Positions 16,753 to 54,182 of a stretch of 64,000 nucleotides of DNA are shown piece after piece. Positions within the stretch are counted from its first letter, which is position 1. Each line of letters begins with the position of its first letter. Where the stretch lies: NCBI GenBank assembly GCA_019057795.1, contig JAHLWS010000026.1, forward strand, positions 1 to 64,000. Direction: 5' to 3'. This DNA is from Promethearchaeota archaeon. Lineage in GTDB: Archaea > Asgardarchaeota > Lokiarchaeia > Sigyniarchaeales > SOKP01. Position numbers and translations under genes: made by a program. The notes beneath the pieces are model-generated. The model made no database searches and had not been told where the DNA came from. It worked only from the letters and a program-made list of their open reading frames with translations.

Positions 16753-16823
16753 CGATGTCAATGAAATAAGCTAAAACACTATATGTGAGCGCTTATTGAG
16801 AGTACCCTTGCAAGACGGCATCG
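16753..16823 (+). promoter_or_regulatory. Eukaryote-like SECIS element of selD copy 1
   Basis: Helix I CGATGTC/GGCATCG; ATGA(16761)...TGAG core; helix II ATAAGC/GCTTAT; apical AAAA; mini-stem CAC/GTG. Confidence 0.88.
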
Positions 16824-17248
16824 AAAAGCTTTACTGTTTTTATTTTCTATTTATAATTAATTTTCCAAATCTTGAACTTCACTTAGATTTTTTCGCTTCC
16901 ATTCTTTTAAGTACCATCTAAAAAAACGCTTTGAAAACCCTAAAGAATTTACATTTTGATTGAAATAATCTTCAATTTTTTTTTGTTTTAACCGGAAAAT
17001 AAGCATACAATAAAATGACTTAAGTAGTTTTTAGTTACCTTGAAAACCAACTGTTTTATTAAAGATGTTATAACATGGGTGTAATATTTGTTTTAAAATT
17101 GAATTTGTTTGCTTATCGAAAAGGTTGATAAATAGAATCGATATTATTAATAAATAAGAATGATTTTTTCAATTAACAATTCTTGATTCCTTTAGTAAAC
17201 AATATTTAATCAACAAAATTTAAAATAAAATAAGATTTGAGGTGAAAA

Positions 17249-18277
17249 ATGGAGAAAAAGGAAGTATATAGACTTACTTCACAGGTTAAGATTCACGGAT
17301 GAAGTTGTAAGCTTGGTCCAAATACCTTAGAGAACTTACTAGCGAGAGCGGGATTACAAGGAGATATTGAAGATGCTGCAATCATCCCAGTCCCAAATAG
17401 TGATTTAGTCATGGCCAAAAATATTGATGTTTTTACTCCTATTGTCGATGAACCAGAAGTTATGGGTCAAATTGCTGCGTCTAATGTAACCAGTGACATA
17501 TTTGCGATGAATGTTCCACACATTTCGGGAATGTTAGTATTTTTAGGGATTAATACTAATACTCCAATGGAAGTAGCTGAAGGAATATTAAAAGGAATCA
17601 AATATTTCATGGAAGAAAAAATTAATTCGCAAGTAGTAGGAGGGCATACTATATATAGTGAATGGCCAATGATTGGAGGAGAAGCGTCGGGTTTTGTTCA
17701 CAAAGACGCAATAATTCTAAAACAAGGAGTTAAAGAAGGAGATAAATTGATTTTAACCAAACCGATTGGCCTACAAGCGATTATGGCTGCTTATAGGACT
17801 CTTAAAGATATGCCCGAAATGTTAGAGCAATATTCAAAAAGTGAACTACAAAAATCAATTGGTTTTGCTATAGAATTAATGACAACACCAAATCAGAATG
17901 TAGTAAAAACTATTCATTCTTATCAAGATTTTTCATTCATTCATGCAATGACAGATGTGACGGGTTTTGGGTTAAGTGGTCATATTAAAGAAATGCTGCA
18001 GAATTCTACCTTATCTGCAATCATTGAAACCATTCCATCAATAAGATTTTCAAAGGAACTTTCAGAAGAATTAGGATACGCTTTTGATGATTGTAGCTGT
18101 CATGAGACTGCTGGAGGGATGTTGATTGCTATTGATCCTAAAAAGGTTGAAGAATTTTCAAATACTCTTAATAGTAATAGTATAGAGAATTGGATTGTAG
18201 GTACAATTGATAATATTGAACCAGGCTTAGTTAGAGTTTCTGATAATGCAGAAAATATTGAGCTTATCAAGTATTAG
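17249..18277 (+). CDS. selD: Selenophosphate synthetase 2, selenoprotein (Sec18, TGA 17300-17302)
   Basis: MEKKEVYRLTSQVKIHG-U-SCKL is in frame with ORF 17411. GAGGTGA at 17239-17245. Paralogue of the upstream gene. Confidence 0.93.
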
Positions 18278-18351
18278 AGATGTCTTTGATATAAGCAAAA
18301 AACACTTGGATAGTGAGTGCTTATTGAGTTTTCACCCGTAAGGTGACATCT
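18278..18351 (+). promoter_or_regulatory. Eukaryote-like SECIS element of selD copy 2
   Basis: Helix I AGATGTC/GACATCT; TTGA...TGAG core; ATAAGC/GCTTAT; A6 bulge; CACT/AGTG mini-stem. Confidence 0.85.
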
Positions 18352-18359
18352 AAAATAAT

Positions 18360-19148
18360 TTATTCCTTAATTTCACCATTCAATTTTATTATAACCTCCT
18401 TTATTTCTTTCAAAGCTTTTTCAGCCATTTCTTCTCCATTTTCAACATTAAAACAGGTTATTGATACTTCGACTTCAATTGCAAGTCCGATCCTTGGATG
18501 TGTTTTAATCCATAACTGAGGATACTTCTCTTCAAGTTCAGTAACATAAGGAGCTATCTGAGATTCACCAATACCCATAAAAATGAAACCCTTTTCTATG
18601 AATTTTCCTCTTTTTTCTTTTAATATTGGTTTGATAACATTAAGAAAAATCGCTTTCATTTCAGCAGGAACACCGGGTAGTACGAAAATTACCGTTTCAC
18701 CTTCTTTAATTTTCACTCCAGGGGCGGTCCCTCTTATATTTGGTAGTGGTGTCGATCCTTGAGGAAGATGTGCCATTTTTTCTCTTTCCTTAGTCATGCC
18801 TTCAAGTTTCAAAATTCCCCTTTCGTAAGCATGTTCATATGCCTTCTCTATAGAATTATAAGCGTGTTCATTTAGCTCTAATTCTCGATTTAAACCCTTT
18901 GCTATCCCTGCTAAAGTCATATCATCAAATGTAGGGCCAATCCCTCCCGAAGTAATTATCATATCTGGTTTGCGTTTTAAAATAGTTTGTAGAGTATTTG
19001 AAATAACCTCAATACTATCTTCTATAGCAGTTATTCTTTTTAATCTATGCCCATATTTTGTTATTCTTTTAGCCATCCAGTTTGAATTAGTATCTTGGGT
19101 CTTTCCAATAAGGATTTCGTTTCCAATTACTAAAATTTCTACTTCCAT
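18360..19148 (-). CDS. CinA N-terminal/molybdopterin-binding domain protein
   Basis: IGNEILIG, DTNS, GGIGPTFDD, GTAPG, LPGVP. Confidence 0.85.
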   Translation of the reverse strand: MEVEILVIGNEILIGKTQDTNSNWMAKRITKYGHRLKRITAIEDSIEVISNTLQTILKRKPDMIITSGGIGPTFDDMTLAGIAKGLNRELELNEHAYNSIEKAYEHAYERGILKLEGMTKEREKMAHLPQGSTPLPNIRGTAPGVKIKEGETVIFVLPGVPAEMKAIFLNVIKPILKEKRGKFIEKGFIFMGIGESQIAPYVTELEEKYPQLWIKTHPRIGLAIEVEVSITCFNVENGEEMAEKALKEIKEVIIKLNGEIKE

Positions 19149-19301
19149 TTTTTTTCGATTATTAGCATGATTGATTTGATTTTATTTATTTAGACAATCC
19201 TTTATCGTTCAAAGGTATTTTAAATTATTCTTAATATCATAATATAATCAGCAATTTTTATAAAAAGTTTTGAATGCAAGATTTTTAACACAAAAAAGCC
19301 A

Positions 19302-19853
19302 TTGACAATAGAAATAGACGATAGTGGAACTGGGGACTTAGTAGGAGACGCTTTTATTGGTTTCTTAAGGCAAGAAACGGGCGAAATGTTATTCAAAGCA
19401 CTATCCGTGGAACTATTCAAGGGTGATAATTGGAAAAATAAAGAACCTTATAAAATGACTGTTGATTTAGTCAAGGAAGGATTGAAAGAATTAAAATTTG
19501 ATAAAAAAACTGAAAAAGTGCTTTTATGTCGCGGTAACATCTTCGATCAGGTAAGGGAATACTTTAACGATGTCGGAATAAAGTGTGAAGCTGCCATAAT
19601 TGAAGGAAAATTACAAGATGCTGTAGAAGATAGACTAGTCGAACATTTGAGAAAGGATCTAGGAGTTCGATCAAGAAAATTGACTCGTAAAAGCGGGGCA
19701 AAGCGTTATTTTGTTCTTTTTAATTGGGTTTCTTACGATTTCTTTAAACGAGAAAAATACGTTAAATCTGGATTCAAAAAATGGAATACAGTTTGGCGGG
19801 AAAGAGCTATAGAAAGATATGAAGAAAATAGGAATCGAAAAAGAAGATATTAA
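19302..19853 (+). CDS. Conserved archaeal hypothetical protein, RNase H-like N-terminus
   Basis: IEIDDSGTGDLVG resembles the RNase HII IDEAGRG motif. Confidence 0.55.
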   Translation: MTIEIDDSGTGDLVGDAFIGFLRQETGEMLFKALSVELFKGDNWKNKEPYKMTVDLVKEGLKELKFDKKTEKVLLCRGNIFDQVREYFNDVGIKCEAAIIEGKLQDAVEDRLVEHLRKDLGVRSRKLTRKSGAKRYFVLFNWVSYDFFKREKYVKSGFKKWNTVWRERAIERYEENRNRKRRY

Positions 19854-19908
19854 TAACTTAAAATTTTTGGTTTTTCTAATAATTCTAATTAAGAAAGAAT
19901 TAACGATT

Positions 19909-20768
19909 TTATAGCTCACGGATTTCTCTAATCTGTTTAGCAGCCTCATCCAATTTATCTTTTAATAATTCTCCTAGTTCAGATGCTTCTGATTCAGATC
20001 TACCTTTCATTTCGATTAGTTCAAAAGCGCTAGAGATAACTTGCAATATGTTTCCTAAATCGTGAGAGTATTATCTTTCAACTCTAATTGTTTGCGAGAT
20101 GATGTAGTATATTCTAAATGAACAAGTAAAATAATAAATAAAATACTTGTTGTGATAATAGGAATATAGTTGAACATTATTAGTACGGGATCGTCTGCGC
20201 TATATAACCCATATCCCTCTCCTTGTAAAGCAATTATTATTGAAACCGGAAAGAATAAGGATAACATTAATACTGAAGCATAATACCAAATAATACTTCT
20301 TCCCATAAATTTCTTAAAACTTTTTTTCTTTATTGGTGGAATTACATAAGTACTAATTAATATTAAGTTCATAAACAGAGCACAGAAGGTAATTACTACT
20401 GTATAATCCGTGATTAAGAAAAAAAGAACAACAATAATAATGAAAATTATAATTAATGATACCATTTTTTTAAATGAAACCGTCATAAAATATTTAAAAA
20501 ACCCCCATAAAATAAAAATTGTTCCTAAAGAAGCAAGAAATGCGTTAAGAACAAGTAAAAACTCTTTCAGGTAAATGTTTTCAACTAGATTTGAAACGAT
20601 GGGGGCTAATGCGCCTAATATCCAAAAAAGCCATCCCAAAGTGAGAAATTTAAATTTTTCTGCTCTGGTACCGTTTAGAAAATCAATTGAAATTCCTAAT
20701 CCCACAACTCTTATAAAAATAATAATTATTAAACTTAACAACACTAGGTCATTCATTTTTGGAATCAA
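19909..20768 (-). pseudogene. Multi-TM membrane sensor with C-terminal HisKA-like H-box; 1-nt frameshift at ~20071
   Basis: The alternate frame continues YSHDLGNILQVISSAFELIE...QIREIREL* to TAA at 19909-19911. Confidence 0.7.
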
Positions 20769-21073
20769 ACCTCTATTATAAATAACTCATTATCATTCAA
20801 ATTTTAAATTACAATATAGATTTCGTCAAACGAATTAATAAAATTTATGCAAATATTTTATGAGATATAAAAAAAATGAGATAATTATAAAGCGAATATT
20901 TTTTTAGATATTAACTGAAATTTATGCGATTTCCATACATATTTAATACAATTTGTCTCTTTACTCTTTTAAACAACACTATGTACAAATAAGGGCGGTA
21001 AATAATTAAAATTAAATATCGTTCAAAATATAAAATATAAAGAATTGATAAAATAATTTCAAGGATAATAAGG

Positions 21074-21757
21074 ATGAAAATTGTTGTATTTGCGCCACAC
21101 CCCGATGATGAGATTTATGGATGCGGTGGAAGTATTTTAAAATGGATGGAAGAGGGCCATGATGTCCATATAGTATATGTTACCGACAATCGCGTTTTAA
21201 TTACATGGGGCAAAGAACACGATCAATTGCTAGAAGAAGAAGCGAAAGATTATATTAATCTGAGCGAAGACGAAATTGGAAAGATAGGGTTAAGTGAAGC
21301 CGAAGAAGTAGCTAAAGCTTTTGGTTTTCCCAATAGTAATGTTCACCTTTTTAAAATTCACGATCAAGACGCAATCAATCAAATAGACAAAGGAGTAGGG
21401 CTTTCTAAGGAAATTATAAAAGATGCCGACAGAATTGTTTTGCCGAGCGATAATAATAACCATTCAGATCATCAAGCAACTCACAATATAGCTAAGACCG
21501 CCGCAATGGAGCTCAACTTAAAGGATATGGAATTTTATGTCTACGCGATATATAACATAATGAAGGCTCCAATGGAAAAACAAGTAAAAATTCGTATGGC
21601 AGAATATCGGGATAAAGTTTACAACATCATGTCGTTATATAAAACCCAATTAGCTCTTAAAGATACAAGGTTGGGTTGGATTACGTTAAAAAGAAAAAGG
21701 TCCGAAAGGTTTGGAGTTTTTTCTTTGAGAGATGTTGGAAACTTTTACAATTTTTAG
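21074..21757 (+). CDS. PIG-L/LmbE family deacetylase
   Basis: APHPDDE and HSDH motifs. Confidence 0.88.
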   Translation: MKIVVFAPHPDDEIYGCGGSILKWMEEGHDVHIVYVTDNRVLITWGKEHDQLLEEEAKDYINLSEDEIGKIGLSEAEEVAKAFGFPNSNVHLFKIHDQDAINQIDKGVGLSKEIIKDADRIVLPSDNNNHSDHQATHNIAKTAAMELNLKDMEFYVYAIYNIMKAPMEKQVKIRMAEYRDKVYNIMSLYKTQLALKDTRLGWITLKRKRSERFGVFSLRDVGNFYNF

Positions 21758-21776
21758 TTTTTAGTAAAAGTGTCTC

Positions 21777-22472
21777 TTATCTTAATTCGGTTCCGCAGTT
21801 TCCACAAATTTTGGTGTTAGATGGTGAGATAGTACCACACGTAAAACATACGATTTGTTTGTCATCTTTTGGTTGTTCTAGTTCAATATGTTGCTGAGGC
21901 TGAGAATTTTGCTTGTCGTGTTTAAAAATACTCATATCAATGTCTTGTTTTAAAATTTTCTCTACGTAATCCTTGTCGTGTGGGGTAACAATTTCAAACT
22001 CTTGAGAAGCTTCGATTTCTTTAAATCCTTTTGGTAAATTTTTAAATTCACTATCTTCTACGATTTTAGTTTCCTTGTCCTTCTTGGGGATCTCCTTATA
22101 GTTTATTTCCTTAGAGGTACTTGTAGCCTTAGGAGATTTTTGTTCCATTTCTTTATAAATAATTTCTTCAAAAGAGTCGCTCTCATGAATAAGTTCCTCA
22201 TCAAATACATCATCAATAAGTGATGAACTTGGTTCAATACTTTTTTGTATTTTTGCTTTTAACTCTTTGATGTGTTCAATAATTTGCTGAGCCTTTTTAA
22301 TTATCATTGATCTGTAAGAGAAATCTAATTTAGGTGTTTTTGAAGCATTGAGTGCCATTTCAGAAATTTCTACCCAAGAATCTATAGCGTCTTGAATTCT
22401 ATTGTTTTTTTCGTAAGCATTCGCTTTAGCAACTTTTTCCGCTAGGTTTTTATTAAATTTTGTAATATCCAT
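21777..22472 (-). CDS. MIT-like domain protein with acidic linker and C-terminal zinc ribbon
   Basis: N-terminal three-helix pattern (A..A..YE....DAI..W); CFTC/CGNC. Confidence 0.6.
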   Translation of the reverse strand: MDITKFNKNLAEKVAKANAYEKNNRIQDAIDSWVEISEMALNASKTPKLDFSYRSMIIKKAQQIIEHIKELKAKIQKSIEPSSSLIDDVFDEELIHESDSFEEIIYKEMEQKSPKATSTSKEINYKEIPKKDKETKIVEDSEFKNLPKGFKEIEASQEFEIVTPHDKDYVEKILKQDIDMSIFKHDKQNSQPQQHIELEQPKDDKQIVCFTCGTISPSNTKICGNCGTELR

Positions 22473-22614
22473 TATAAAAACTACTTAAATTTTAATTAAT
22501 TCTCAAGATTATCAAGTAAATTTAACTATATATAATTGTTAATATGTTATGTAAAAATTAATAATAGAGTTTTTTCTTAGTTTATTAAAAGAAAATACTT
22601 TTTTATTGTAATTT

Positions 22615-24504
22615 ATGTCAATAAGACCCTTTTCTTCTAGTGAGTTAAACAATTTAAGAGAAGTAATTGAACGAAATGGTTGGAAAATAGATGGAACTAT
22701 TGAAAATTATTTCAGGTATAGCGTTAAAAAGGATAAATTAATACTATTTACAATAAAATTTCCAGTTTCGCTGCCTTTAAGGTTAAATTTTCCGCTTGAA
22801 GTAGTTAGTTTTCGCATTTGCATGGCTTTTAAATTATGGGATTTTAATCAAAATACTTATAAGGTTATTCTTTCTTTAATGAAAATGCTCCGAGATTTAG
22901 CCCTTCAAGTTACTTTAGAACATGCTTTTCCCATCAAAGGTAAGGAGAACGACTTACTTGATATATTAAATCTGCTAATGCCTGAACCAATAACCGACGA
23001 GATCGATAGTACGTGGTTAAATCGTATACGCATATCTTTAATGAATAAACGCGATAAGTTCCAACAATTTACCGGAGAGCATATAAATAAAATAGTAGAA
23101 GCTTTGAAAAACACTAGATTGAAACCTACATTTAAACTTCCGTGGGAATTAAGAGATGGAGTTCCTAAACTTCGAGCTTCTGAAACGTTATTTTTTTCAA
23201 ATGAAGAAAAATTTGATGAGTTTTTCATATTAGAAAAGGGCTTTTTCACGTTTTTTAAAGATTTAGAATATCATAAATTTTTTATCAGATCTTCTTTCGA
23301 TTGCTATTCTCCGTATATTTTAAGTTCTTTGTTTAATGATACTGAGTTTAAGCTAGAAATGTATGTTGAAAATTGGATTAAGTTTTCCAGAATGATGTTG
23401 AATTCTATAATAGAAATAATAACTCTAGCAGAAATTAATCAAAATGACTATATAAAATTTAAACCTGAAAGAGAATTAGAGTCAAAAGGATTTGAGTTAG
23501 AAAAAAATAACTTTCCATTTTCAGCATTACATTACGAAAGCACATTATCAAAAGGAGAATTATATCAGATTCACAACGACCTATTTAATTCACCACCTAC
23601 TAATTTTGAAATGATTGAATCAATTAATTCCTATACAGAAGCAGAAAAGTTAATAAAGAATTATAGGTTTGATGAGGCTACTCAATTGTTAAATAACTCT
23701 TTAAAAATTTTCAATAAAAACCGTCAAAAGAAAATAGTAGTCTCAATATTATTAAAATTAAGAAAAATAGCCTCATTACTAAACCAAGATGAGGTTGCGC
23801 TCAATTATTTACAAAGTGCGATGGGAGTTGCTAAATCTGGAGAGGTAACAATAGAATTTATTATAAAAATACAATATTATTTAGGTAAGTGGTTTTATAA
23901 AACTGAAAAATTTGATGAAGCCTTGTCTCACTTTAATATTATTGTCAATTTCTTGGAAAAAGAAGAAACTATTACTGATAAAGATGAATTCCTTGGTATG
24001 GCTTACTTATACTTGGGATTAATTAATTTGAAGCAGAATAAATTAACTCAGTCTAAAAATAATTTCAAGAAAGCTTTTCAATTAGGAAACAGTTCGATTA
24101 AAGTAAAGTTAAACTATCATCTCAAGCGAGCCAAATACTATAAATCGAAAGATAATTTATCCCAAGCTCAAAAATCGTTACGATCTGGCATAGAGGTAGT
24201 CGGTTTAGATTATGATGAGATGAAAAACGCTCCCATTTTATTTGATTTAGTTTTAGAATTAGCCGAGTTCTATATTCATCACAGGGTAGATTCAAAAAAA
24301 TCGCTTTATTTAATGAAAAAAATCGAAAAGCGACTTTATCTTAACTTAAAAGAAATTTCAGGAATCCGTAGAGCAATTCGATGGAATTTGCTAATGTGTG
24401 ATTATTATGATATACTAGCTAATGATAGTAATAACTCAACCCACTATTATAAACAAAGCCAAATTTTAATTAACCAATTAAAGAAGATTGGAGTGTTAGG
24501 TTAA
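22615..24504 (+). CDS. TPR-containing protein
   Basis: C-terminal TPR-like helices (AYLYLGLI, FKKAFQL). Confidence 0.65.
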   Translation: MSIRPFSSSELNNLREVIERNGWKIDGTIENYFRYSVKKDKLILFTIKFPVSLPLRLNFPLEVVSFRICMAFKLWDFNQNTYKVILSLMKMLRDLALQVTLEHAFPIKGKENDLLDILNLLMPEPITDEIDSTWLNRIRISLMNKRDKFQQFTGEHINKIVEALKNTRLKPTFKLPWELRDGVPKLRASETLFFSNEEKFDEFFILEKGFFTFFKDLEYHKFFIRSSFDCYSPYILSSLFNDTEFKLEMYVENWIKFSRMMLNSIIEIITLAEINQNDYIKFKPERELESKGFELEKNNFPFSALHYESTLSKGELYQIHNDLFNSPPTNFEMIESINSYTEAEKLIKNYRFDEATQLLNNSLKIFNKNRQKKIVVSILLKLRKIASLLNQDEVALNYLQSAMGVAKSGEVTIEFIIKIQYYLGKWFYKTEKFDEALSHFNIIVNFLEKEETITDKDEFLGMAYLYLGLINLKQNKLTQSKNNFKKAFQLGNSSIKVKLNYHLKRAKYYKSKDNLSQAQKSLRSGIEVVGLDYDEMKNAPILFDLVLELAEFYIHHRVDSKKSLYLMKKIEKRLYLNLKEISGIRRAIRWNLLMCDYYDILANDSNNSTHYYKQSQILINQLKKIGVLG

Positions 24505-24523
24505 AACTATTAAAAACATAGAT

Positions 24524-24727
24524 TTAACGTTTGTAGGATGCTCGTTTAGCACCAATAGATTCACGCTGTCCAGCGTATTCCCCTTTCTCAACTCTCTGTA
24601 TATAAAGATCGCGATATCTCATTCTTGGAGGCTTTTTCTTCCTTGAGTTTACTCCAGTTCTTCGTATTTTTGGTGTTTGTTGTTTAACCTTTCCAGCTTT
24701 TGTTAAACTACCGTGACTTCCTGGCAT
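24524..24727 (-). CDS. rps30e: Small subunit ribosomal protein eS30
   Basis: HGSLTKAGKVKQQTPK. Confidence 0.95.
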   Translation of the reverse strand: MPGSHGSLTKAGKVKQQTPKIRRTGVNSRKKKPPRMRYRDLYIQRVEKGEYAGQRESIGAKRASYKR

Positions 24728-24946
24728 TTTTCATAAATCTCCTTATAGTTATTTTTTTACTTAATTAATTTTATTAAAGGCGTTCCGTATTATTTTAAAG
24801 TCGTTTAAAGCACTTAAATTTTGTTATTATCATGAATTTATTAGTACTGAAAAAATAAAAATTGGACTCCATTTTTTTTATAGATTTGGTCTAAATTATA
24901 TTAATTGAAGATCATGAAATAATTATTGTATTAATTTGAGCTTATT

Positions 24947-25129
24947 ATGTCAAAAATTAATATTACAGATAAAGCAAGAAAAACCGCAAGAGTTAAAGAT
25001 AATAAAATCCAATATGGGGAAAGCAAAAATATGTGTTTTGCATGCGGAGAAAAAATTGATAGCAATACTAAGATTTGTCCCTATTGCAAAACAAAACAAG
25101 ATGAAAAAGAATCAATATTAAAACAATGA
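24947..25129 (+). CDS. Small zinc-ribbon protein
   Basis: CFAC...CPYC. Confidence 0.65.
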   Translation: MSKINITDKARKTARVKDNKIQYGESKNMCFACGEKIDSNTKICPYCKTKQDEKESILKQ

Positions 25130-25180
25130 ATTCTTTAAAACATTAGAAAATATTTCAAAGTACAATTAGAGTAATCTCAA

Positions 25181-25675
25181 ATGAGCTTTCAACAATCCAA
25201 ACGTAAAAAAATCTCCGTATTGAGTGGTTTAGTTACTTTTTTAGTAGTCGGTTTTTTAATAATCGCAATCTTTTTCATTGGAATTAGTATTTTGATACTT
25301 GTCGTAATTCCCGTAATAATATTAGTTATAATAGGTATTGTTGTCTATCGTTATTCGGGAGAATCAAAAAAGTATTGTCCGCGTTGCAACCTTCCAACTA
25401 GCGTTTACACAGAATATTGTCGCAATTGTGGCTTGAAATTAATAAGTAAATGTCCAAATTGCAATATTTATATGCCCAGAAACAATAAATATTGCGATAT
25501 TTGCGGTTATGAATTCCCAGCAATAAAAGAAGATAAAATAATCCCTGAATATGAAGTCTTTCAAAAGGGCGCTCCCACTCCAAAAAAGCCAAATTTTTGC
25601 CCTACTTGCGGGGCGTCTATGAAAGATGCTAAAAATCTTAGATTTTGCGAATTCTGTGGTTCGAAAATTGTCTAA
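25181..25675 (+). CDS. Membrane-anchored multi-zinc-ribbon (DZR) protein
   Basis: Two TM helices followed by six CxxC motifs. Confidence 0.75.
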   Translation: MSFQQSKRKKISVLSGLVTFLVVGFLIIAIFFIGISILILVVIPVIILVIIGIVVYRYSGESKKYCPRCNLPTSVYTEYCRNCGLKLISKCPNCNIYMPRNNKYCDICGYEFPAIKEDKIIPEYEVFQKGAPTPKKPNFCPTCGASMKDAKNLRFCEFCGSKIV

Positions 25676-26350: not shown

Positions 26351-26384
26351 TTATTTTACGCCACGACTTGTTTTCCTAAATCAT

Positions 26385-26488
26385 GGGGGCGTGGCGAAGC
26401 TCGGTATAACTTTGCCCTTTCGGTGCATAGTGCTAAACGCGGCAGGCTCCAGACTTGTTGGTCACCGGTTCAAATCCGGTCGCTCCCA
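26385..26488 (+). tRNA. tRNA-Trp(CCA) with 28-nt D-arm intron (26409-26436)
   Basis: Acceptor GGGGGCG/CGCTCCC; anticodon arm GCAGG-CTCCAGA-CTTGT (CCA 26449-26451); T-arm ACCGG-TTCAAAT-CCGGT; BHB motif GGTA-TAA/TGCT-AAA. Confidence 0.92.
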
Positions 26489-44594: not shown

Positions 44595-44760
44595 TTTTTA
44601 ATTTTCATTTTATCAAGGAATCTCCGCCTATTCAATAAATAAGTCCCTTAAAAATCAATAATTTGGTGAAGTCGGGATATTTTAAAGGATAGATTAAATT
44701 TTAGACATAAGTAGATCGATTGAAAAATTTAACGATAAAAACTAAGGGTTATAACCAAAA

Positions 44761-45768
44761 ATGGAATTGTTCCAAGTTTTTTGGGACGAACAAAGGAAAT
44801 TGTTTTTAGAATTTAAAAAAAACGATGAAGAACAAGTTCAATTTCTTCCAGATAAGATTAAACGATTGAATTTCCAGTTTGAAATATCTAAGATTGTTAA
44901 ACAAGAGATTTATTACAAGCAATCTCCATCGCTAATTTCAATAAAAAAGATTTATCACTCAAACGAGCTTCTCTGTTTTACAATTGAATTAGATGAAATT
45001 CAGGGTTATACAGATATCCAGATTAAAGTTTTAAAACTAACGATATATCTATATTCTGGGCACCGAATCGAGTATATATTTTCAGAGAAATTTAACATAT
45101 TAGACATTGGGATTAACGACGATTGCTACGATGGTTTTCAATTTATAGATCTAAGTTTAGGTAAAGGTCAAAAAAGAAAAGTCACTCAAGAAAGAGTAAT
45201 ACAATCGATTAAGACGGATTACAACCAAAATAAAGAAGAAAGAACAATAATTTACGAAAAAAAGAGTATTGAGAGTATTTCTGCTGATCAAGCTAATCAA
45301 TCTGTAATTTCAATGATGAAAGAGAGCAACGAGACTTTAAAAAACATAGAGCTATATTTAAAAAATCTCTCCTTAACCATGCAAAATATGCCAGTTAGTC
45401 CTATATCTTACGGACCGCCAGTACGCACGCCCCAAAGAATTTCGGGACCTGGTATCGAAAGAATTAAAAGATCCGAATTACCTTCATTGATACAAAGCCG
45501 AGGATCATCAGCAAAACTTTTAGTGATAAAAGAGATGAAAACAAAATTCAGAGAAATCACAGAGAAAAACAAAGGATTTAGTGTTACAGATATTTTAAAA
45601 CCAATGAGCGAGGATGAACTTAAAGCTATCGTATTGAGCGATGAGGAATTAAAGAAAAAGGAAGAAATCACAATCAATAACCAAATTAAAAGATTTAAAA
45701 AAAAGCAAGAACTAAAAGAACAAAAAGAAAAAAAAATCAAACTGAAAAAATTAAATAAACCAAAATAA
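44761..45768 (+). CDS. Hypothetical protein
   Basis: 335-aa ORF; Pro-rich linker, charged tail. Confidence 0.6.
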   Translation: MELFQVFWDEQRKLFLEFKKNDEEQVQFLPDKIKRLNFQFEISKIVKQEIYYKQSPSLISIKKIYHSNELLCFTIELDEIQGYTDIQIKVLKLTIYLYSGHRIEYIFSEKFNILDIGINDDCYDGFQFIDLSLGKGQKRKVTQERVIQSIKTDYNQNKEERTIIYEKKSIESISADQANQSVISMMKESNETLKNIELYLKNLSLTMQNMPVSPISYGPPVRTPQRISGPGIERIKRSELPSLIQSRGSSAKLLVIKEMKTKFREITEKNKGFSVTDILKPMSEDELKAIVLSDEELKKKEEITINNQIKRFKKKQELKEQKEKKIKLKKLNKPK

Positions 45769-45910
45769 GCTATTAATGAATACTGAACTCACTTTTTTTA
45801 ACCCTATCCCTAATATTCATTCGTAGTGTTCATTATTAGTTTTATTATGAATCTTTAATTATCTTTGATTATTTAAATATTAATGAGGAAAGAAAACTTA
45901 TTAGAGGTCG

Positions 45911-46693
45911 ATTAATTTTTTATTAAATTACTTTATTGGTACCGCTGGAAGCGGAAAAAGTACTTTAACAGGATTATTTAAAGAGTATGTTCTTACTAGA
46001 AATCCTGATATTTCGGCTATTACTTTAAACTTGGACCCTGGCGTTAAAAGAATGCCTTATACTCCCGATATAGATATAAGAGACTACATCGTTCTTGAAG
46101 AAGTAATGGATAAATATGAGTTAGGGCCAAACGGAGCCATGATCTTAGCTTCTGATTTAATGGTTAACTTTCTAGACGATTTAAAGTACGAAATTGACGA
46201 ATACAATCCAGATTGGGTATTTGTAGATACTGCTGGGCAGCTCGAACTGTTTGCTTTTAGGGAAACGGGACCTTTAATTGCAAGTTCATTAGGTTTTGGA
46301 TCAATTCAAAAGGCAGTTTCTTTTCTTTTTGATTCAAACTTAGTCCTTAGACCTAATGGATTCATCTCTACACTACTTTTAGCGGCCTCAGTACAATTTA
46401 GGTTTAGAAATATTTCCCAAATTAATGTTTTATCCAAGGTTGATCTATTAGGCGAAGATCAAATCGATATGATTGTTAATTGGAGTCAAGACTTTCGAGC
46501 GTTAGAGGATTCCACTAATGAAAGAGAAAGTGGTTTAATAAGGGAGTTATCTATGTTAATCTCAGAAGTATTCGTTCAATTAGGCTCCACTTCAGAGTTG
46601 ATTCCCTGCTCAAATAAAGAAGAATACGGGCTCGACCTATTATTTGCCTATTTACAAAGAATTTTCAATTCGGATGAGTCAAAGTTTTATTAA
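45911..46693 (+). CDS. GPN-loop GTPase (probable ATT start)
   Basis: Walker A GTAGSGKST lies in frame upstream of the track start; NLDP, LGPNG, DTAGQLE. Confidence 0.88.
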   Translation: MNFLLNYFIGTAGSGKSTLTGLFKEYVLTRNPDISAITLNLDPGVKRMPYTPDIDIRDYIVLEEVMDKYELGPNGAMILASDLMVNFLDDLKYEIDEYNPDWVFVDTAGQLELFAFRETGPLIASSLGFGSIQKAVSFLFDSNLVLRPNGFISTLLLAASVQFRFRNISQINVLSKVDLLGEDQIDMIVNWSQDFRALEDSTNERESGLIRELSMLISEVFVQLGSTSELIPCSNKEEYGLDLLFAYLQRIFNSDESKFY

Positions 46694-46748
46694 ATTAAAT
46701 GATTAATAACACTAAATAAATTAAAAAGACTATATTTCAAATTAAAAT

Positions 46749-47846
46749 ATGAAAATTATTGGTCCATGTGCAGGTATTGGTTCGAGATTACGCCCATTTA
46801 CCTTAAGCAAACCTAAAGCGTTCATAAATGTTGCTGGTAAGACGGTGTTAGAACACATCCTTAATAAGATTAACGACACTTTTGATTCAAAAACGGAATT
46901 AATTTTAATTGTAGGATATAAGAAAAGACAAATAATAGAATTCGTTAAACAAAAGTATAGCGATAAGTTTCGGTTAACTTTTATCGAGCAGATACCTAGA
47001 GGTTATAATGACGACATCCCCTTTTATTGGGGCTTAGGTGAAGCCGTATATTTAGCTAATTCAAGGTTTGAAAAAAAAAAATACGCAAGTAAAGAAGCTG
47101 ATAAACGGGAAGGATCGTTAATCTTCTTATCAGACATGATTCCAATTGACGAATATTCTTACTTAATGTATCGATATTACGAATCTGATATAGATGGAAT
47201 TATTACAGTAATGGAAGTCCCAAAAGAAAATGCAAGCTCTTATGGTGTTGTTGTTGTAGATGATAATTCCCTTATTCAAAAATTAGTTGAGAAACCAAAA
47301 GAATTTGTATCCAATTTAGCTATAGCTGGTATATACGCATTTTCTAACTCTGCAACCCAAGCTCTCTTTGATAATTTAAAAATATACTTAGATAAAAGAG
47401 TGGACAGCGCTAAAGAGGTTTATTTAACCGAAAGTTTACAAGATTTAATCGATAGCGGATTCAAAATCGCAGCAGTTAAGCTAAAAAAAGGAATATTGGA
47501 TTTTGGAAGACCTTCTGAAGTGTTGAACGGTAACAAATATCTTTTAGACCAAAAATCGGTCAATATCGAAGATTTTCAAGAACTAAATATCGTTTCTGAA
47601 AGGTCGTTCATAAAAGGTCCAGTATATATAGGGAAGAATACCAACATTTCTTATTCCGTTGTTGGACCATATGTATCTATTGGTTGCGATTCTAATATTG
47701 AAAATTGTATTCTAGAAAATTGCGTTATTGAAAAGAATGCAACTTTGAAAAATGTGATTACTGAGAGTTCAATCATAGGAAGTAATGTAAGAGTAGAAAA
47801 TATTACTAAAAATAATTTAATTATTGGAGACAAAAGTATTTATTGA
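46749..47846 (+). CDS. Sugar-1-phosphate nucleotidyltransferase with left-handed beta-helix
   Basis: AGIGSRLRP.T..KPK, EKP, hexapeptide C-terminus. Confidence 0.88.
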   Translation: MKIIGPCAGIGSRLRPFTLSKPKAFINVAGKTVLEHILNKINDTFDSKTELILIVGYKKRQIIEFVKQKYSDKFRLTFIEQIPRGYNDDIPFYWGLGEAVYLANSRFEKKKYASKEADKREGSLIFLSDMIPIDEYSYLMYRYYESDIDGIITVMEVPKENASSYGVVVVDDNSLIQKLVEKPKEFVSNLAIAGIYAFSNSATQALFDNLKIYLDKRVDSAKEVYLTESLQDLIDSGFKIAAVKLKKGILDFGRPSEVLNGNKYLLDQKSVNIEDFQELNIVSERSFIKGPVYIGKNTNISYSVVGPYVSIGCDSNIENCILENCVIEKNATLKNVITESSIIGSNVRVENITKNNLIIGDKSIY

Positions 47847-47892
47847 TAAAAAATAAAAAAAATATAAAATAAAATAAAATAAAATAATAATC

Positions 47893-49242
47893 ATGCCGTA
47901 TAATATAGCGTTTGATGTGGCCCACAAGCCGCGTGGAAAGTTAGACGAGAATCTAACGGAATTACGAGACTTCTTAAATGCGAACGATTATGTTTGTTAT
48001 AATTTCTTAGAAGCGCCGATTACCCGAAATTCTTTAAAATCTTTTGATATTTTAGTGTTTGTTTGCCCTGATTTTACAAAAATTTCTTCGATGGAAATAA
48101 CTGAAATTAACAGTTGGGTTAGAGAAGATGGTGGCGGGTTATTGATGATGTCGCATGCGGGGGGCGATAGAGGAAGAAATAGTAACTTAAGCGAAGTAAG
48201 TCAATCATTTGGAATCGTATTTGAAAACGATCAAGTACTAGATAAAACTTATAATTTAGGCTTGGAAAATATGCCTATAGTTACAGCCTTTATTCCACCA
48301 CATCCAATTACAAATGGTATTAGTTCATTATGCTTTAGATCTGGATGCTCGCTTTCGTTATTAGGTAATTCTATTTCTATTGTTTCTTCAAATGAAACCT
48401 CAGAACCTTTTTCTACTCCCTTAATTTGTGTTGCTGAACCAGATAAAGGAAGGGTATGTGCTATAGGAAGTTACGAATTGTTTAGAGACAGAGTTGGAGG
48501 GGGTTTTGGTAACGACGAGCATCCAAATTTAGCGTTTAATATATTTTCATGGTTAGTTTCAGATTATAGAATGGAATTGCATTCGAGTGGTGCTATCCTC
48601 GAGATTGCTCCTCAAGAGGCAACTTCTACAAAACAAACAATGGACTACCAAGCGCCACCAATTAGTTCTGAAATAACTGAAAGGAAAAAAGTAGATATCA
48701 GTTTTTCTATGAAAATATCTAAAAAAAGTGAATTAATCGATTTACTAAAGATTTTTCAAAATCAAATTGATACGATAAAGACTACAATCGACAAATTAAT
48801 TAGAACAGTTGCTTCTTCGGAGACCTCGATAACAGAATTGACTGAACCCCCATCTAATAAAATTGAAAAAACAACAAATGATGGTTTAGACGAATCATTA
48901 ACCTCAAATGAACCACTAACCGATCTACCCAAAAGACCTGAGGTTTTGGACCAAAAAGAGGACGAATATTTTATTGGACTGCCAAGACTCGATGTATCCG
49001 ATAAATTAAAGCCTGCTCCAAAACCCCAAACTAAAAAGAAAGTTAAAAAGAAAGATTTAATAGCCGAAAAGAAGGGACTAGAAAGTAAACTTAATTCGGT
49101 TCGAAACTTACTTGATTTTGTAGAAAAAAAATATAAAGCTGGACAAATGGATAAGAAATCTTACGAAAAACGGGCTGGTCAACTGAAGAATGATTTGAAG
49201 GCAACTAAAAACAAAATTGAAGCCATTGATAAACAACTATAA
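47893..49242 (+). CDS. GIFT/DUF4350 (IFT52/GldG-like) domain protein with C-terminal coiled coil
   Basis: IAFDVAH, GGGLLM, N....FGIVFEND.V, HPITNGI, GRVCAIGS, N.FSWL. Confidence 0.65.
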   Translation: MPYNIAFDVAHKPRGKLDENLTELRDFLNANDYVCYNFLEAPITRNSLKSFDILVFVCPDFTKISSMEITEINSWVREDGGGLLMMSHAGGDRGRNSNLSEVSQSFGIVFENDQVLDKTYNLGLENMPIVTAFIPPHPITNGISSLCFRSGCSLSLLGNSISIVSSNETSEPFSTPLICVAEPDKGRVCAIGSYELFRDRVGGGFGNDEHPNLAFNIFSWLVSDYRMELHSSGAILEIAPQEATSTKQTMDYQAPPISSEITERKKVDISFSMKISKKSELIDLLKIFQNQIDTIKTTIDKLIRTVASSETSITELTEPPSNKIEKTTNDGLDESLTSNEPLTDLPKRPEVLDQKEDEYFIGLPRLDVSDKLKPAPKPQTKKKVKKKDLIAEKKGLESKLNSVRNLLDFVEKKYKAGQMDKKSYEKRAGQLKNDLKATKNKIEAIDKQL

Positions 49243-49273
49243 AATGCAAAGTAAGGTTTATATTCATTAAATT

Positions 49274-50596
49274 CTAACTTTTTGGCTTAAATTCGTCAGG
49301 AACATATGGTTGAGCGTATTTATTTACAATTTCGAAGAACTCTTTATCCCCCACTCCTTTTGTAACTTTCTCTAGTTCTTGCTTTATTATCTTAAACGAC
49401 TTTCTTAATTCCTTTTTAGACGTCTCCTCGTGTTTCTTTTTCACTTCTAAAACAATTCGCTTAATAATATCTTCTGGAATATCTAAATCTAAAACCTTAA
49501 TTTTTTGTTGTAGTGCGTTTAGTACTGATTTAGACCCTGAAAATTTTCCTAAATAGAATTTTCTTCTTCTACCTACTATATGGGGGTTGATTGGTTCATA
49601 AGTTAATGGGTGTGCTAAAATTGCAGCAATGTGAAGTCCGCTTTCGTGACTAAAAGCGTGTTCACCAACTATGGCCTTGTTTAAGGCTAGTGGTTGGCAA
49701 AAATATTTCTCGCAAATTTCGCTTAATTCTGGTAATTTTGTCAAATCTATACCGGTTTTAATACCTATCCGTTCAAGATTCGTAGCAACCTCTTCTAAAG
49801 CGGCATTTCCTGCTCTTTCGCCGTAACCATTTATACATGTATGTGGATAAGTGCATCCCTCAAACACGCCAACAATAGTATTAGCAACCGCTAAGCCAAA
49901 ATCGTTGTGCGTGTGAATACCCATTGGAATTTTTTTCTTTAGTGGTTTTATAACTTCTTTTTTTATTCGCTTAATCAAATACGAAGTAGAATCGGGCGTT
50001 AAAACACCCACTGTGTCTCCAAGAACGATCCTTTCTGCCCCAGCTTCTATTGCTGTTTTGAAAACATTTACCAAATGATTAAAATCGCATCTAGTGCCAT
50101 CTTCTGAAACCCAATTGACTCTAAATCCGTTGTTTCTCGCGTAATGAATGGCTTCTTCTATCATCTCTAGTTGCTGTTCAGGTGTTTGCTTTAAAGTTTT
50201 CCTAAAAATTGGAGAAATTGGCATGAAAATAACGATTTCTTTAAGATCTACATCGATACACGCATTAATATCTTCCTTCTTTGGACGAGCAATTCCAAGG
50301 ATAGTAGCATGTTTACAATTTTCATTTACTATCGCTTTAACGATTTTCTTTTCGGTTTTTGAGACTGCTGGAAACCCAACTGCGATTAATTTAACTCCTA
50401 TCTCGTCCATTAATTTTGTTAAATGGATTTTTTCATCTAATGTAAGATAAACGGTAGGACTTTGCTCTCCATCTCTCAATGTTTCGTCCCAGATACAGAC
50501 TTTTGAGGGAAGATCAAGTTTTTGCTCTTTTAAAGCAATTTTATTATAATCAATTAAAAGTTCTTCTAATTCCTCTTTTGTAAATTTATAGCTCAT
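49274..50596 (-). CDS. Homocitrate/isopropylmalate synthase family (DRE-TIM), no LeuA regulatory domain
   Basis: DETLRDGEQ, HTHNDFG, GERAGNA, HESGLH. Confidence 0.88.
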   Translation of the reverse strand: MSYKFTKEELEELLIDYNKIALKEQKLDLPSKVCIWDETLRDGEQSPTVYLTLDEKIHLTKLMDEIGVKLIAVGFPAVSKTEKKIVKAIVNENCKHATILGIARPKKEDINACIDVDLKEIVIFMPISPIFRKTLKQTPEQQLEMIEEAIHYARNNGFRVNWVSEDGTRCDFNHLVNVFKTAIEAGAERIVLGDTVGVLTPDSTSYLIKRIKKEVIKPLKKKIPMGIHTHNDFGLAVANTIVGVFEGCTYPHTCINGYGERAGNAALEEVATNLERIGIKTGIDLTKLPELSEICEKYFCQPLALNKAIVGEHAFSHESGLHIAAILAHPLTYEPINPHIVGRRRKFYLGKFSGSKSVLNALQQKIKVLDLDIPEDIIKRIVLEVKKKHEETSKKELRKSFKIIKQELEKVTKGVGDKEFFEIVNKYAQPYVPDEFKPKS

Positions 50597-50785
50597 CTTT
50601 GATTACTAGTGGGGGTCAATTTATTAATAGTAAAAATTATCTAAAACAAATAAAATTGTTTATTGATTTTTAAGAAGAAAAAGATTATTTTTAATTTCTT
50701 TTCATAGAACTATTAATAAAAGCAAAAATAAGTTAAAATTATTTTTTTCGATAAATAATAAAAATGTAGTATAATTTTGTTCTTT

Positions 50786-51283
50786 TTAAGTGTGCTCACA
50801 CCCACACCCACATTCATGCGTGCCAGGTGGATCTGGTTCGCAACCTATTTCTAGAATTTTAATTTTAAAGATTAGCGTTTTTCCTGCCATTGGGTGGTTC
50901 ATATCAAGGGTTACAAACTCGCCATCGACCTCCTTAATCCAGACCACAGATTGTGCCCCGTTAGCATCAAATGCGTTCAACATCATCCCCGGTTCAGGAT
51001 CAATATCTTTTGGAAGTTGATCTTTTGAAATAGTTTGAATTAATTGTGGATCGACCTCACCATAAGCTTCAGAAGCTTTTATAGTAATAGTAAATTCATC
51101 TCCAACATCCTTACCCATAACCGCGTTATCAAAACCTCGAATTAATAAACCAATACCAACTTCAAATTTCATTGGTTTTCCTCCTTGAAGTTCCGTACTA
51201 TCAAATATCGTTCGATCTTCTAATCGCCCTTCGTATTCTACCTTAATTATATCGCCCTTCTTAATAACCATTTTAGATTCCAA
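50786..51283 (-). CDS. slyD: FKBP-type PPIase (SlyD-like)
   Basis: VEYEG, FDS, EAYG, DMNHPMAGKTL; Cys/His tail. Confidence 0.88.
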   Translation of the reverse strand: MESKMVIKKGDIIKVEYEGRLEDRTIFDSTELQGGKPMKFEVGIGLLIRGFDNAVMGKDVGDEFTITIKASEAYGEVDPQLIQTISKDQLPKDIDPEPGMMLNAFDANGAQSVVWIKEVDGEFVTLDMNHPMAGKTLIFKIKILEIGCEPDPPGTHECGCGCEHT

Positions 51284-51480
51284 CTTTTTAGATATTAATA
51301 AAATAATGGAAATAATGTTTATTACTTAATGGTTTATTTTTTAAAAATTCTAATTTTAAAAATGGGAGAAATTTATCAAATAAAGAAATAGTAATAAAGT
51401 GGCTACTGCTGTAATTGTATTTCTAATTATTGGTTTTCGCCTATTACAAAAACATATAATTCTGAAAGAACTGATTTCAT

Positions 51481-51921
51481 TTATTTTATAATATCTGTTA
51501 TAAAACAAGTTTCCATAATTTTAACTCCTTTGATTACAGATATTTTCTCTTCAATTAAAGGGTTAAACTGTTCAATAGTAGGAATCTCTACTTTTATAAA
51601 AAGACCACAATTTCCACTTAAGCGCCAAATATCTGTAATCTCTTCAATTGCTTTTAATTCTTTCATTATATTTTTCATCTCCTTAAAATCAGGTTCAATT
51701 TTAACAGTGGCTCTAGTTTGTGGTTTAGAATTTGTACTATATTCTATAGTAAAACTTTTTATTATGCCATCCTCCTTCAACTTATTAACCCGCCTTCGAA
51801 CCGTAGCTTCTGTTTTTCCTACTCGCTCAGAAATGTCTCTAAATGATATTCTACTATTTTCCTTCAATTCTTCTAAGATTTTTTCATCGATTGCGTCCAA
51901 TTTAATTTTCAACCTCTTCAA
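51481..51921 (-). CDS. Lrp/AsnC family transcriptional regulator
   Basis: LDAIDEKIL..L..NSR, TVRRRVNKL..GII. Confidence 0.9.
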   Translation of the reverse strand: MKRLKIKLDAIDEKILEELKENSRISFRDISERVGKTEATVRRRVNKLKEDGIIKSFTIEYSTNSKPQTRATVKIEPDFKEMKNIMKELKAIEEITDIWRLSGNCGLFIKVEIPTIEQFNPLIEEKISVIKGVKIMETCFITDIIK

Positions 51922-52236
51922 AATATATTTAATATTTTACTAAAATGATCTATTTTATATATTAATTGTGATATTTAGTTAATTATTTTTTAGCTTTTTA
52001 GTATTTAAATTTTTATTTTTTATTTGAATCTTTCGAAAAAAAGCGATTTTGGTCGATATGTATTATATTTATATAATAATTTGAAAATTGATATTGTTAA
52101 AATAATCAAATATTTAGCATATTATTACCAAATTAATAATTTTACAATTTTTTTATCACAACTCTCAAATACATAGACATCTATAACTATTCATATTACC
52201 ACTATCAAGATAAACATTAATTTTTAAAAAAAATAT

Positions 52237-53868
52237 ATGAATATGGATTATTTTCTCGGTTTAGATTGTTCAACTCAAAGTTTAACAGCCATTCTCATAA
52301 ATCTTAGCAAAAATGAAATTATCATTAGGTATAGTATTAATTTTGACGAAGAACTACCACATTACAACACTCAAAATGGCGTTTTTAGTTCAAATGGCGG
52401 TAAAGTTGTTCACTCGAATCCATTAATGTGGGTAGAAGCTTTAGATTTATTATTTAAAGCGTTTGTTCAAAAAAACTTACCTTTGAGCAAAATAAAGGCA
52501 ATATCTGGTTCAGCTCAGCAACATGGAACGGTCTATTTAAATAATTCTTTCGAATCAACTCTAAAAAATTTAGATTCTGAAAAACCTTTAGTAGATCAAT
52601 TACAGAAAGTATTTACAAGAGAAACTAGTCCAATCTGGATGGATTCAAGCACAACCAAGCAATGCGAAGAAATTCGCCTTAAATTAGGAGGATTAGAACC
52701 TACAATAAGTATAACTGGTTCAAATACATTTGAGAGATTTTCTGGACCGCAAATTAGAAAATTTTACGAACAAAATTACGATGATTATATTCAAACTTCA
52801 ACGATTCATCTTGTAAGCTCTTTTCTTTCTTCAATATTACTAGGTAAAAGTTCACCAATCGACCATGGAGATGGAGCGGGTATGAATTTAATGAACATTA
52901 GAACTAAACAATGGGACAATAAGGCTTTAGATGCTACTGCTCCAGATTTGAGACAAAAATTACCGTCCCTTATCAACTCTTACGATGTCATAGGAAAAAT
53001 ATCTCCTTATTTTGTAGAAAGATTTGGCTTTTCTCCAGAAACTATCCTAATCGGGTGGTCGGGAGATAATCCGAATAGCTTAATTGGAGTTGGTCTTACA
53101 GAGAAGGGTAAAGCCGCAATTAGCTTAGGTACGAGTGATACTTATTTTAGTTTTATGAAAAACTTATCATTTGATATGTTGGGAGAGGGACATGTTTTTA
53201 GAGCGCCTACAGGAGATTTTATGAGTTTAATCTGTTTTAAAAATGGGTCTTTAGCAAGAGAAGCTATTAAAGATAAATTCAATCTAAATTGGGACAAATT
53301 TGGTGAAATCCTAAGAATAACGCCCCCAGGGAATTTTGGTAAAATTATGTTACCATATTTCTTGCCTGAAATAGTACCCTTAGTTTTAGAGCCGACTGTT
53401 TATCGATTTGGTTTTGATGAGAATGATGTACAAGGTAATGTCCGAGGAATCATAGAAGCCCAATTTCTGTCAATGAGACTGCATTCCGAGTGGATCCAAG
53501 AGCAACCAGAAGAGATTTATGCTACAGGAGGAGCATCTGCTAATAAAGAAATATTACAAATCGCATCAAATATATTTAATGCTAAGATTTACAAATTTGA
53601 AGTTACTAATTCCGCAGCATTAGGTGCAGCACTTAGAAGCGCCAAATCCTATTATGATTCTATAAATGAAAGTATTAATTGGACTGAATTAGTAAATCGT
53701 TTTCTAAAAATCCAAGATAATTATATAATACAACCGAATAATAAGTATAAAAAATTATACGATGATATGCTCGAAGTGTATAGGAAATGTGAAAAATACT
53801 TCTTAAAGAATGGAGAAAATCCAGAACAATTTCGGAAAGATTTTATAAAAAAATATTTTAGTAATTAA
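52237..53868 (+). CDS. xylB: Xylulokinase, eukaryote-type (XYLB/Xks1-like) FGGY kinase
   Basis: LDCSTQ, QQHG, PIWMDSST..QC, ERFSGPQIRK, GDNP, SLGTSD, NGSLARE, GGASAN. Confidence 0.85.
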   Translation: MNMDYFLGLDCSTQSLTAILINLSKNEIIIRYSINFDEELPHYNTQNGVFSSNGGKVVHSNPLMWVEALDLLFKAFVQKNLPLSKIKAISGSAQQHGTVYLNNSFESTLKNLDSEKPLVDQLQKVFTRETSPIWMDSSTTKQCEEIRLKLGGLEPTISITGSNTFERFSGPQIRKFYEQNYDDYIQTSTIHLVSSFLSSILLGKSSPIDHGDGAGMNLMNIRTKQWDNKALDATAPDLRQKLPSLINSYDVIGKISPYFVERFGFSPETILIGWSGDNPNSLIGVGLTEKGKAAISLGTSDTYFSFMKNLSFDMLGEGHVFRAPTGDFMSLICFKNGSLAREAIKDKFNLNWDKFGEILRITPPGNFGKIMLPYFLPEIVPLVLEPTVYRFGFDENDVQGNVRGIIEAQFLSMRLHSEWIQEQPEEIYATGGASANKEILQIASNIFNAKIYKFEVTNSAALGAALRSAKSYYDSINESINWTELVNRFLKIQDNYIIQPNNKYKKLYDDMLEVYRKCEKYFLKNGENPEQFRKDFIKKYFSN

Positions 53869-53928
53869 ATATGTAAAAATCTTAAAAAGTAATAGAAATA
53901 AAAAAAAAATAATAAAAGTGAGATAAAA

Positions 53929-54126
53929 ATGCCTTTAAAATTCCTTGAAAATGAAAGAAACAAAAAAATATTCATTGCTATTATTATCATAGCACTGGTT
54001 ATTACTTTTGCTACTCTCATCTCTGTAGCAGTCATTAATTTCATCCCCCCAGATGATAACGGAGGAGGATGACTTTGCTTAGCTGTTGGTTATCAAAAAA
54101 TATTTTTAAACATAATATTAAAATAA
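53929..54126 (+). CDS. Putative 65-aa single-pass membrane selenoprotein (Sec48, TGA 54070-54072); not in ORF track
   Basis: MPLKFLENERNKKIFIAIIIIALVITFATLISVAVINFIPPDDNGGG-U-LCLAVGYQKIFLNIILK*; SECIS core starts 3 nt after the TAA. Confidence 0.72.
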
Positions 54127-54129
54127 AGG

Positions 54130-54182
54130 ATGACTTTTGCGAGAAAATTCTAGTCGCAAAACGACTTACCCCGCAAGGGTAA
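54130..54182 (+). promoter_or_regulatory. SECIS element (third copy) with 3' GNRA hairpin
   Basis: ATGAC-TTTTGCGA-GAAAATTCTAG-TCGCAAAA-CGAC, then TTACCCC-GCAA-GGGTAA. Confidence 0.78.

Follow-up and report, generated by a model that had tools for sequence, protein, structure and literature searches.

A third, covarying arm of Asgard SECIS elements and its probable role as a functional module

The selenocysteine insertion sequence (SECIS) elements of Asgard archaea carry a short extra hairpin, here termed helix III, a few nucleotides (nt) 3' of their G.A core. This arm is conserved and covarying across the Asgard archaea, and we consider it likely, on comparative grounds, that it is a functional module of SECIS, serving folding, recognition by a SECIS reader, or both. 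The starting point was a stretch of 64,000 nt (hereafter the window; positions 1 to 64,000 of contig JAHLWS010000026.1, assembly GCA_019057795.1) from a metagenome-assembled genome (MAG) of Promethearchaeota, of 4.95 Mb and 31% GC, whose host is a Loki-type Asgard archaeon. The window holds three SECIS, one directly 3' of each of two tandem selD genes and a third behind an unannotated open reading frame (ORF) of 65 residues. A first reading of the letters alone, which we call the original prediction, had drawn attention to strings of the form ACCC...GYAA at 16804-16816, 18334-18344 and 54166-54182; they do occur there, each 3-6 nt 3' of the UGA or CGA that bears the 3' G.A. These three copies are ordinary instances of helix III, the first of them partly decayed, and as far as the window is concerned the arm refines an element already known and does not amount to a new system.

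The genome that contains the window was scanned with a pattern describing the core only (AUGA, stem, A-rich loop, GA or AA), in which helix III was not asked for. Ten good type I SECIS emerged, and a hairpin begins 1-4 nt after the GA in all ten. They serve four hdrA-vhuD pairs, prxL, vhuA/vhuU and four small UGA-containing ORFs; the stem sequence of helix III is different in every one of them, and each folds as three arms with only helix II, the upper stem, constrained. Together with the two selD elements, helix III is found in all 12 SECIS of the genome, the selD1 copy being degenerate. The 26 nt that follow the 3' GA in these 12 elements have a median folding energy of -4.35 kcal/mol, as against -0.4 kcal/mol for random 26-mers (Mann-Whitney p ~1e-6), and the same segments also fold better than 3'-untranslated-region (UTR)-like controls (p ~1e-7). 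The stems are GC-rich although the genome has only 31% GC, and hairpins at -2 kcal/mol or below follow the SECIS GA in 83% of cases, versus 17% after ordinary genes.

Relatives extend this picture and supply the covariation. A plain MAFFT alignment (A2) of 25 type II selD elements, taken from the 3' UTRs of 26 other species, has helix III paired in 98.4% of cases, with double changes at four of its five pairs, a larger share than helices I and II or the ministem show; its covariation score was reached in none of 500 shuffles. The selD genes of two relatives have type I SECIS instead, and helix III is present there too. The arm is also kept in 28 orthologous vhuD SECIS (A3), and downstream of selenocysteine (Sec)-containing vhuD genes a hairpin was recognized by eye in 20 of 20 regions, covering 12 genera and 8 families and including other classes of the phylum. 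Helix I, the lower stem, was counted on these two orthologue sets only, since the 5' internal loops of paralogues differ in length. Thirty diverse type I elements, aligned with plain MAFFT (A4), show double changes at all five helix III pairs; 79.6% of cells are paired, compared with 31-48% in controls slid out of register. Covariation in the 3' UTRs of other Asgard selenoprotein genes had been proposed as a check of the arm, and helix III with double changes is what both the selD and the type I sets contain; the covariation bears out the view of the hairpin as a genuine SECIS part that forms a three-way junction with helix I. The accompanying idea of an architecture confined to one lineage does not survive, as the arm is spread over at least eight families, other classes included.

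A covariance model, R1, was built from the alignment of diverse type I elements. Applied to the whole genome it returned exactly the ten known type I elements with E-values of 3e-6 or better, the next match, on contig C77, having an E-value of 0.6; type II and core-less forms are not detected by it. In four distant genomes a third arm accompanies nine of ten matches. Scanning with the extended motif, which had been suggested as a route to further selenoproteins, thus brought no type I element beyond the known ten in the genome itself and did bring matches in the distant ones. The literal string fares differently as a finder: ACCC-N0-2-GYAAG occurs six times in the window against 0.71 expected, a count reached in none of 100 shuffles, and three of these occurrences (28151-, 55281+ and 58130-) are without a SECIS, two lying in coding sequence and one lacking a stem. 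With half of its matches unrelated, and with most SECIS of the genome missed on account of their different stems, it was discarded as a SECIS finder.

Fitting to R1 yielded an enlarged set (A5) of 79 distinct type I elements from at least eight families, with the bias towards pairing that is weighed below. The middle pair of helix III is paired in 76 of 76 elements (C-G 43, U-A 27, U-G 4, A-U 1, G-C 1), and 43 distinct helix III stems are represented. What stays nearly constant across them lies in the loop, where G is followed by C in 70 of the 79 elements and by U in five, 75 in all; among the four loops that depart from this, three belong to elements misaligned by R1. G followed by a pyrimidine (G-Y) occupies 51 of 55 loops, versus 30% of random genomic hairpins. 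The selD loops read Y-G-Y-R-A or UGCAC and the vhuD loops mostly N-W-G-C-M. The feature common to the loops is, as their letters read, a G followed by C or U, and ACCC...GYAA is only a local flavour of it. Between loop flavour and a GA or AA core, inspection by eye of the diverse type I alignment revealed no link.

The position of helix III relative to the core is equally regular. Along the 5' strand the order is helix I, a C-stem of 2-3 nt, a 3-nt bulge (R-A-U), the G.A/A.G pairs and helix II; along the 3' strand it is helix II, GA or AA, C-stem, helix III and helix I. The first C-stem pair, between the nucleotide two positions before AUGA and the nucleotide after the 3' GA, is G-C in 76, U-A in two and C-G in one of the 79 type I elements, with one or two more pairs beyond it; in selD the corresponding pair (columns 8/54 of the selD alignment) changes from C-G to U-A or U-G without exception. 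By its sequence, the core is a regular kink-turn (k-turn), comprising C-stem, R-A-U bulge, G.A and A.G, with helix II as the NC helix. From the non-bulged strand, right after the C-stem and thus 2-3 base pairs (bp) below the turn, helix III branches off, which makes a k-junction-like three-way junction. A k-junction is a k-turn with a third helix in the non-bulged strand, as known from TPP riboswitches and the 23S rRNA of H. marismortui (Wang et al. 2014, PMC4005666). The likeness is that in all Asgard elements helix III lies on the non-bulged 3' strand, after the GA or AA. In k-junctions, however, the third helix stands directly opposite the loop and is coaxial with the C helix, whereas in the Asgard elements, as far as their sequences tell, 2-3 covarying C-stem pairs and 0-3 linker nt intervene.

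Two elements behind Sec-containing vhuD genes, L081 (family f2) and L087 (family f7), have no AUGA/GA and retain the A-rich apical loop. Unconstrained, they fold into helix I, a helix II with the A-rich loop, and a helix III with the loop GCAC or UGCAA, and these three-armed elements are probably core-less SECIS. Because helix III is present in them without AUGA/GA, it does not appear to depend on the k-turn.

The three SECIS of the window, all on the forward strand, illustrate both the regularity and the range of the arm. SECIS 1 (16753-16823), the type II element of selD1, was delineated by folding, the selD alignment and pair counts: helix I at 16753-16757/16819-16823, C-stem at 16758-16759/16800-16801, a core with AUGA at 16761-16764 and the 3' UGA at 16797-16799, and helix II, topped by a ministem, at 16766-16771/16791-16796. 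Its helix III (16805-16818) forms only three of the five consensus pairs, in agreement with the earlier remark that pairing is weakest in this copy, and has UGCAA in the loop (its row of A2); the segment folds no better than its own shuffles. SECIS 2 (18278-18351), the type II element of selD2, comprises helix I at 18278-18282(83)/18347-18351, helix II with ministem at 18291-18296/18319-18324, and a core with the 3' UGA at 18325-18327 and, on the 5' side (18286-18289), UUGA, not the AUGA that had been assumed for it. Two close relatives, L011 and L037, share this UUGA; the 5' core has been published as always AUGA, rarely GUGA. Helix III of SECIS 2 (18332-18346; columns 59-73 of the selD alignment) has a 5 bp stem and the 5-nt loop CGUAA, and its outer pair, U-A where close relatives have C-G, reflects a compensatory double change (columns 59/73); RNAfold assigns this outer pair to helix I instead.

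SECIS 3 (54126-54182), the type I element of the 65-residue ORF, scores 72.7 bits with R1. Its C-stem is formed by 54126-54128/54165-54167, the bulge and G.A occupy 54129-54133 (AUGA 54130-54133), helix II lies at 54135-54142/54154-54161, the A-rich apical loop of 11 nt, ending in AG, reads GAAAAUUCUAG, and the 3' GA is at 54163-54164. The 4 bp stem of helix III (54168-54180) closes the loop CGCAA and can be extended to 6 bp (54166-54182); an A-run follows downstream. That this third SECIS is real had been argued from the shared motif, and its score and the conservation of ORF, UGA and SECIS in at least 13 genomes of the genus confirm it. Its supposed lack of any other sequence relationship was mistaken: helix II and apical loop (54135-54161) are about 83% identical to the hdrA-vhuD SECIS at C42:32113-32165, and also resemble the selD type I SECIS of L025. 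These likenesses suggest that SECIS modules may be copied between genes while helix III diverges. Helix II is short in all three, as first noted, with 6 bp plus U.U in the selD elements and 8 bp plus N.N (here C.C) in SECIS 3; that selD SECIS have a short helix II and a type II shape was already in print (Mariotti et al. 2016, PMC4989117).

In most of their remaining parts the window elements agree with published descriptions, which cover core, upper stem and apical loop, plus the ministem for selD (PMC4989117; PMC11227280). The type I element, or lokiSECIS, has AUGA, a stem of 8-9 bp, an 11-nt A-rich loop ending in AG and a 3' GA or AA, and follows closely upon the stop codon of a gene containing UGA (Mariotti et al. 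2016, PMC4989117; Huang et al. 2024, PMC11227280); SECIS 3 agrees in every respect, with AUGA and GA, 8 bp plus C.C, the 11-nt loop and a UGA gene upstream. The selD lokiSECIS has a shorter main stem, an A-rich bulge, an apical ministem and a lower stem G[A/U]G_C[U/A]C (PMC4989117; PMC11227280), and the type II selD model specifies a GA_[G/A]A core, an upper stem of 7-15 bp, an A-rich bulge of 4-12 nt, a ministem of 2-8 bp and an apical loop of 2-6 nt, its loose version requiring only GA (Huang et al. 2024, PMC11227280). Both selD elements of the window fit type II, selD1 with AUGA and selD2 with UUGA, having a GA_GA core, a ministem of 3-4 bp and an apical loop of 5 nt, their upper stem of 6 bp plus U.U lying at the lower limit of the model. 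Helix III, between the 3' GA and the lower stem, is extra to the published selD element, and the texts of Mariotti 2016, Sun 2021, Huang 2024, Peiter and Rother 2025 and a 2026 review describe no third hairpin or three-way junction.

Comparison with SECIS outside the Asgard archaea sets the arm apart. In eukaryotic SECIS the internal loop is plain and helix II is longer. Types 1 and 2 of these share with the Asgard elements the 3'-UTR site, the G.A/A.G k-turn core preceded by AU, the unpaired A's above helix II and a helix I below the internal loop, but SBP2 is absent from Asgard genomes and the window elements match no Rfam SECIS; at the three sites, searched at the gathering score and with E-values up to 10, Rfam returned no SECIS or other meaningful family. 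The SECIS of methanogens (Euryarchaeota), with a GAA_A kink-turn-like motif (Peiter & Rother 2022, 2025), likewise are 3'-UTR hairpins with GC clamps around an asymmetric purine-rich loop, but each is a single hairpin without the AUGA/GA quartet and without a third arm.

How helix III might act can be framed in several ways. If it is a functional module, it would be required for UGA recoding, where it would fix the geometry of the junction and the k-turn and, in organisms without SBP2, would show its G-Y loop, beside the A-rich apical loop of helix II, to a SECIS reader that might be EFSec itself or another protein. A bolder version, which we put forward only tentatively, holds that the G-Y loop and the A-rich apical loop are the primary determinant for the reader, that the k-turn merely sets the angle of the arms and is replaceable, the core-less variants being a case in point, and that eukaryotic SECIS arose by loss of helix III once SBP2 had taken over the recognition of both k-turn and internal loop. 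Alternatively, helix III could be purely architectural, turning a weak k-turn into a stable k-junction-like junction with a loop that nothing reads, its G-Y stemming from loop stability or shared ancestry. The topology of a third helix on the non-bulged strand of a k-turn, the GC-rich stems in a 31% GC genome, and the abutment of selD helix III on helix I without a spacer, which suits coaxial stacking, all speak for it. This explanation seems rather unlikely to us, as G-Y is kept in those 75 of 79 loops across paralogous SECIS whose stems and loop flanks are wholly different, far from the 30% of random hairpins, and as helix III is kept in L081 and L087, where there is no k-turn to stabilize.

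The original prediction had defined the arm by a GNRA (GYAA) tetraloop, which, closed by C-G, might dock in a receptor as a tertiary contact. GCAA or GUAA does occur in all three window copies, and GCAA, GCGA, GUAA or GUGA in most selD loops and in those of the small membrane ORF. The selD covariation, however, backs a 5 bp stem with a 5-nt Y-G-Y-R-A loop, the tetraloop register breaking the next pairs; in the R1-fitted register none of the 79 type I loops is GNRA, and many could not be so in any register (CAGCA, UAGCU, AUGCC and UGGCC are examples, and most VhuD-type loops, such as N-A-G-C-A, are non-GNRA), while a conserved receptor was not seen. As a common feature the GNRA tetraloop was rejected on the selD register and the non-GNRA type I loops, and docking of this kind has little chance of being the explanation. 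Much less probable still is a role outside recoding, as a transcription terminator or a hairpin that stabilizes the 3' end, an option that had been named as one that would undo the proposal. The hairpin is GC-rich and in vhuD elements often has U-rich sequence next to it, but helix I encloses it and the U-rich run is the 3' strand of helix I; the selD copies are without a U-tract, and neither 16805-16818 nor 18332-18346 is called as terminator-like. Genes without Sec seldom have a comparable hairpin after them (the 17% versus 83% given above), and the arm keeps a fixed place with respect to the SECIS core rather than the stop codon. Chance or inherited similarity, that is, short complementary runs without selected structure, would suit stems of only 3-6 bp and single-element shuffle tests that are often not significant; set against 43 distinct stems, compensatory changes, a fixed position, unrelated genes and distant families, it is scarcely credible.

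Several points weigh against a functional module. Individually the shuffle tests are weak (25 of 55 elements reach p<0.05), and the sequences are related, so that the p-values, including the combined shuffle p, overstate the case. The counts from the 79 fitted elements come from a model that itself contains helix III and so favours pairing. In SECIS 3 there is no convincing helix I, so the junction is not always formed; the vhuD SECIS on contig C42 has a stem of only 3 bp that does not fold alone; a distant R1 match, L128, has no hairpin in register; and selD1 keeps its Sec codon despite a decayed helix III. As the arm is weak or absent in selD1, the C42 vhuD SECIS and L128, it may be helpful without being obligatory. 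All of the evidence is comparative, the function of helix III being deduced from conservation alone. Its novelty is qualified as well: for type I, the texts of Mariotti 2016 and Huang 2024 mention no C-stem or G-Y loop, but their figures and supplements lie outside the scope of this statement and could contain an unremarked drawing.

The genes served by the window elements have features of their own. The small membrane selenoprotein ORF (53929-54126, + strand, Sec codon 54070-54072) encodes one N-terminal transmembrane helix followed by GGG-U-(P/L)-x-x-C, the window copy being given as GGG-U-x-C, and has no Pfam family match. At least 13 genomes in the genus encode orthologues that retain the UGA, the frame beyond it and the SECIS, and in these helix III is conserved with wobble and compensatory variants. 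Further type I SECIS, at C24:23608(-), C63:23732(-) and C78:176805(+), stand behind small unannotated UGA ORFs; one of these three ORFs ends in ...GC-U-U, and one encodes a Zn-ribbon-like peptide with several UGA codons.

The stretch 15715-18351 is a tandem duplicate of selD with Sec in both copies. selD1 (selenophosphate synthetase; 15715-16752, + strand, Sec codon UGA 15769-15771), translated with TGA as U, gives a selenophosphate synthetase-like protein with the motif G-U-N-C-K, and selD2 (17249-18277, + strand, Sec codon UGA 17300-17302), translated in the same way, is 96% identical to the selD of the Promethearchaeota MAG Loki_b31; beyond Loki_b31 the relatives belong to Promethearchaeia, that is, Loki-type Asgard archaea. 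The in-frame UGA falls within G-U-x-C-K in both. The SECIS of a relative, L012, resembles a chimera with a selD1-type 5' half and a selD2-type 3' half. A 969-residue HEAT/Armadillo-repeat protein (12653-15562) is encoded directly upstream of selD1, and the neighbours of the selD genes include a NOG1-like GTPase, a glyoxalase, a hydantoinase, an amino-acid kinase, MaoC, the HEAT-repeat protein and MoCF, among which no candidate for Sec machinery or RNA binding was found. Elsewhere in the window, Rfam marks a partial tRNA at 26425-26480 (30.6 bits, model positions 10-63), which may be a mere fragment, or else a tRNA that is split or contains an intron; ARAGORN finds zero tRNAs in the window.

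Asgard SECIS are taken as a bridge to the eukaryotic system, and archaeal recognition works without SBP2. Current search models take in only core, upper stem and apical loop and so lack helix III, a conserved covarying arm whose loop is sequence-specific; adding it would sharpen selenoprotein gene finding, as the separation in the genome itself illustrates (true elements at E<=3e-6, next match at 0.6). The arm would also offer a defined RNA bait, along with point mutations, for finding the reader, and its inclusion would alter the picture of what was lost and gained on the way to the eukaryotic SECIS.

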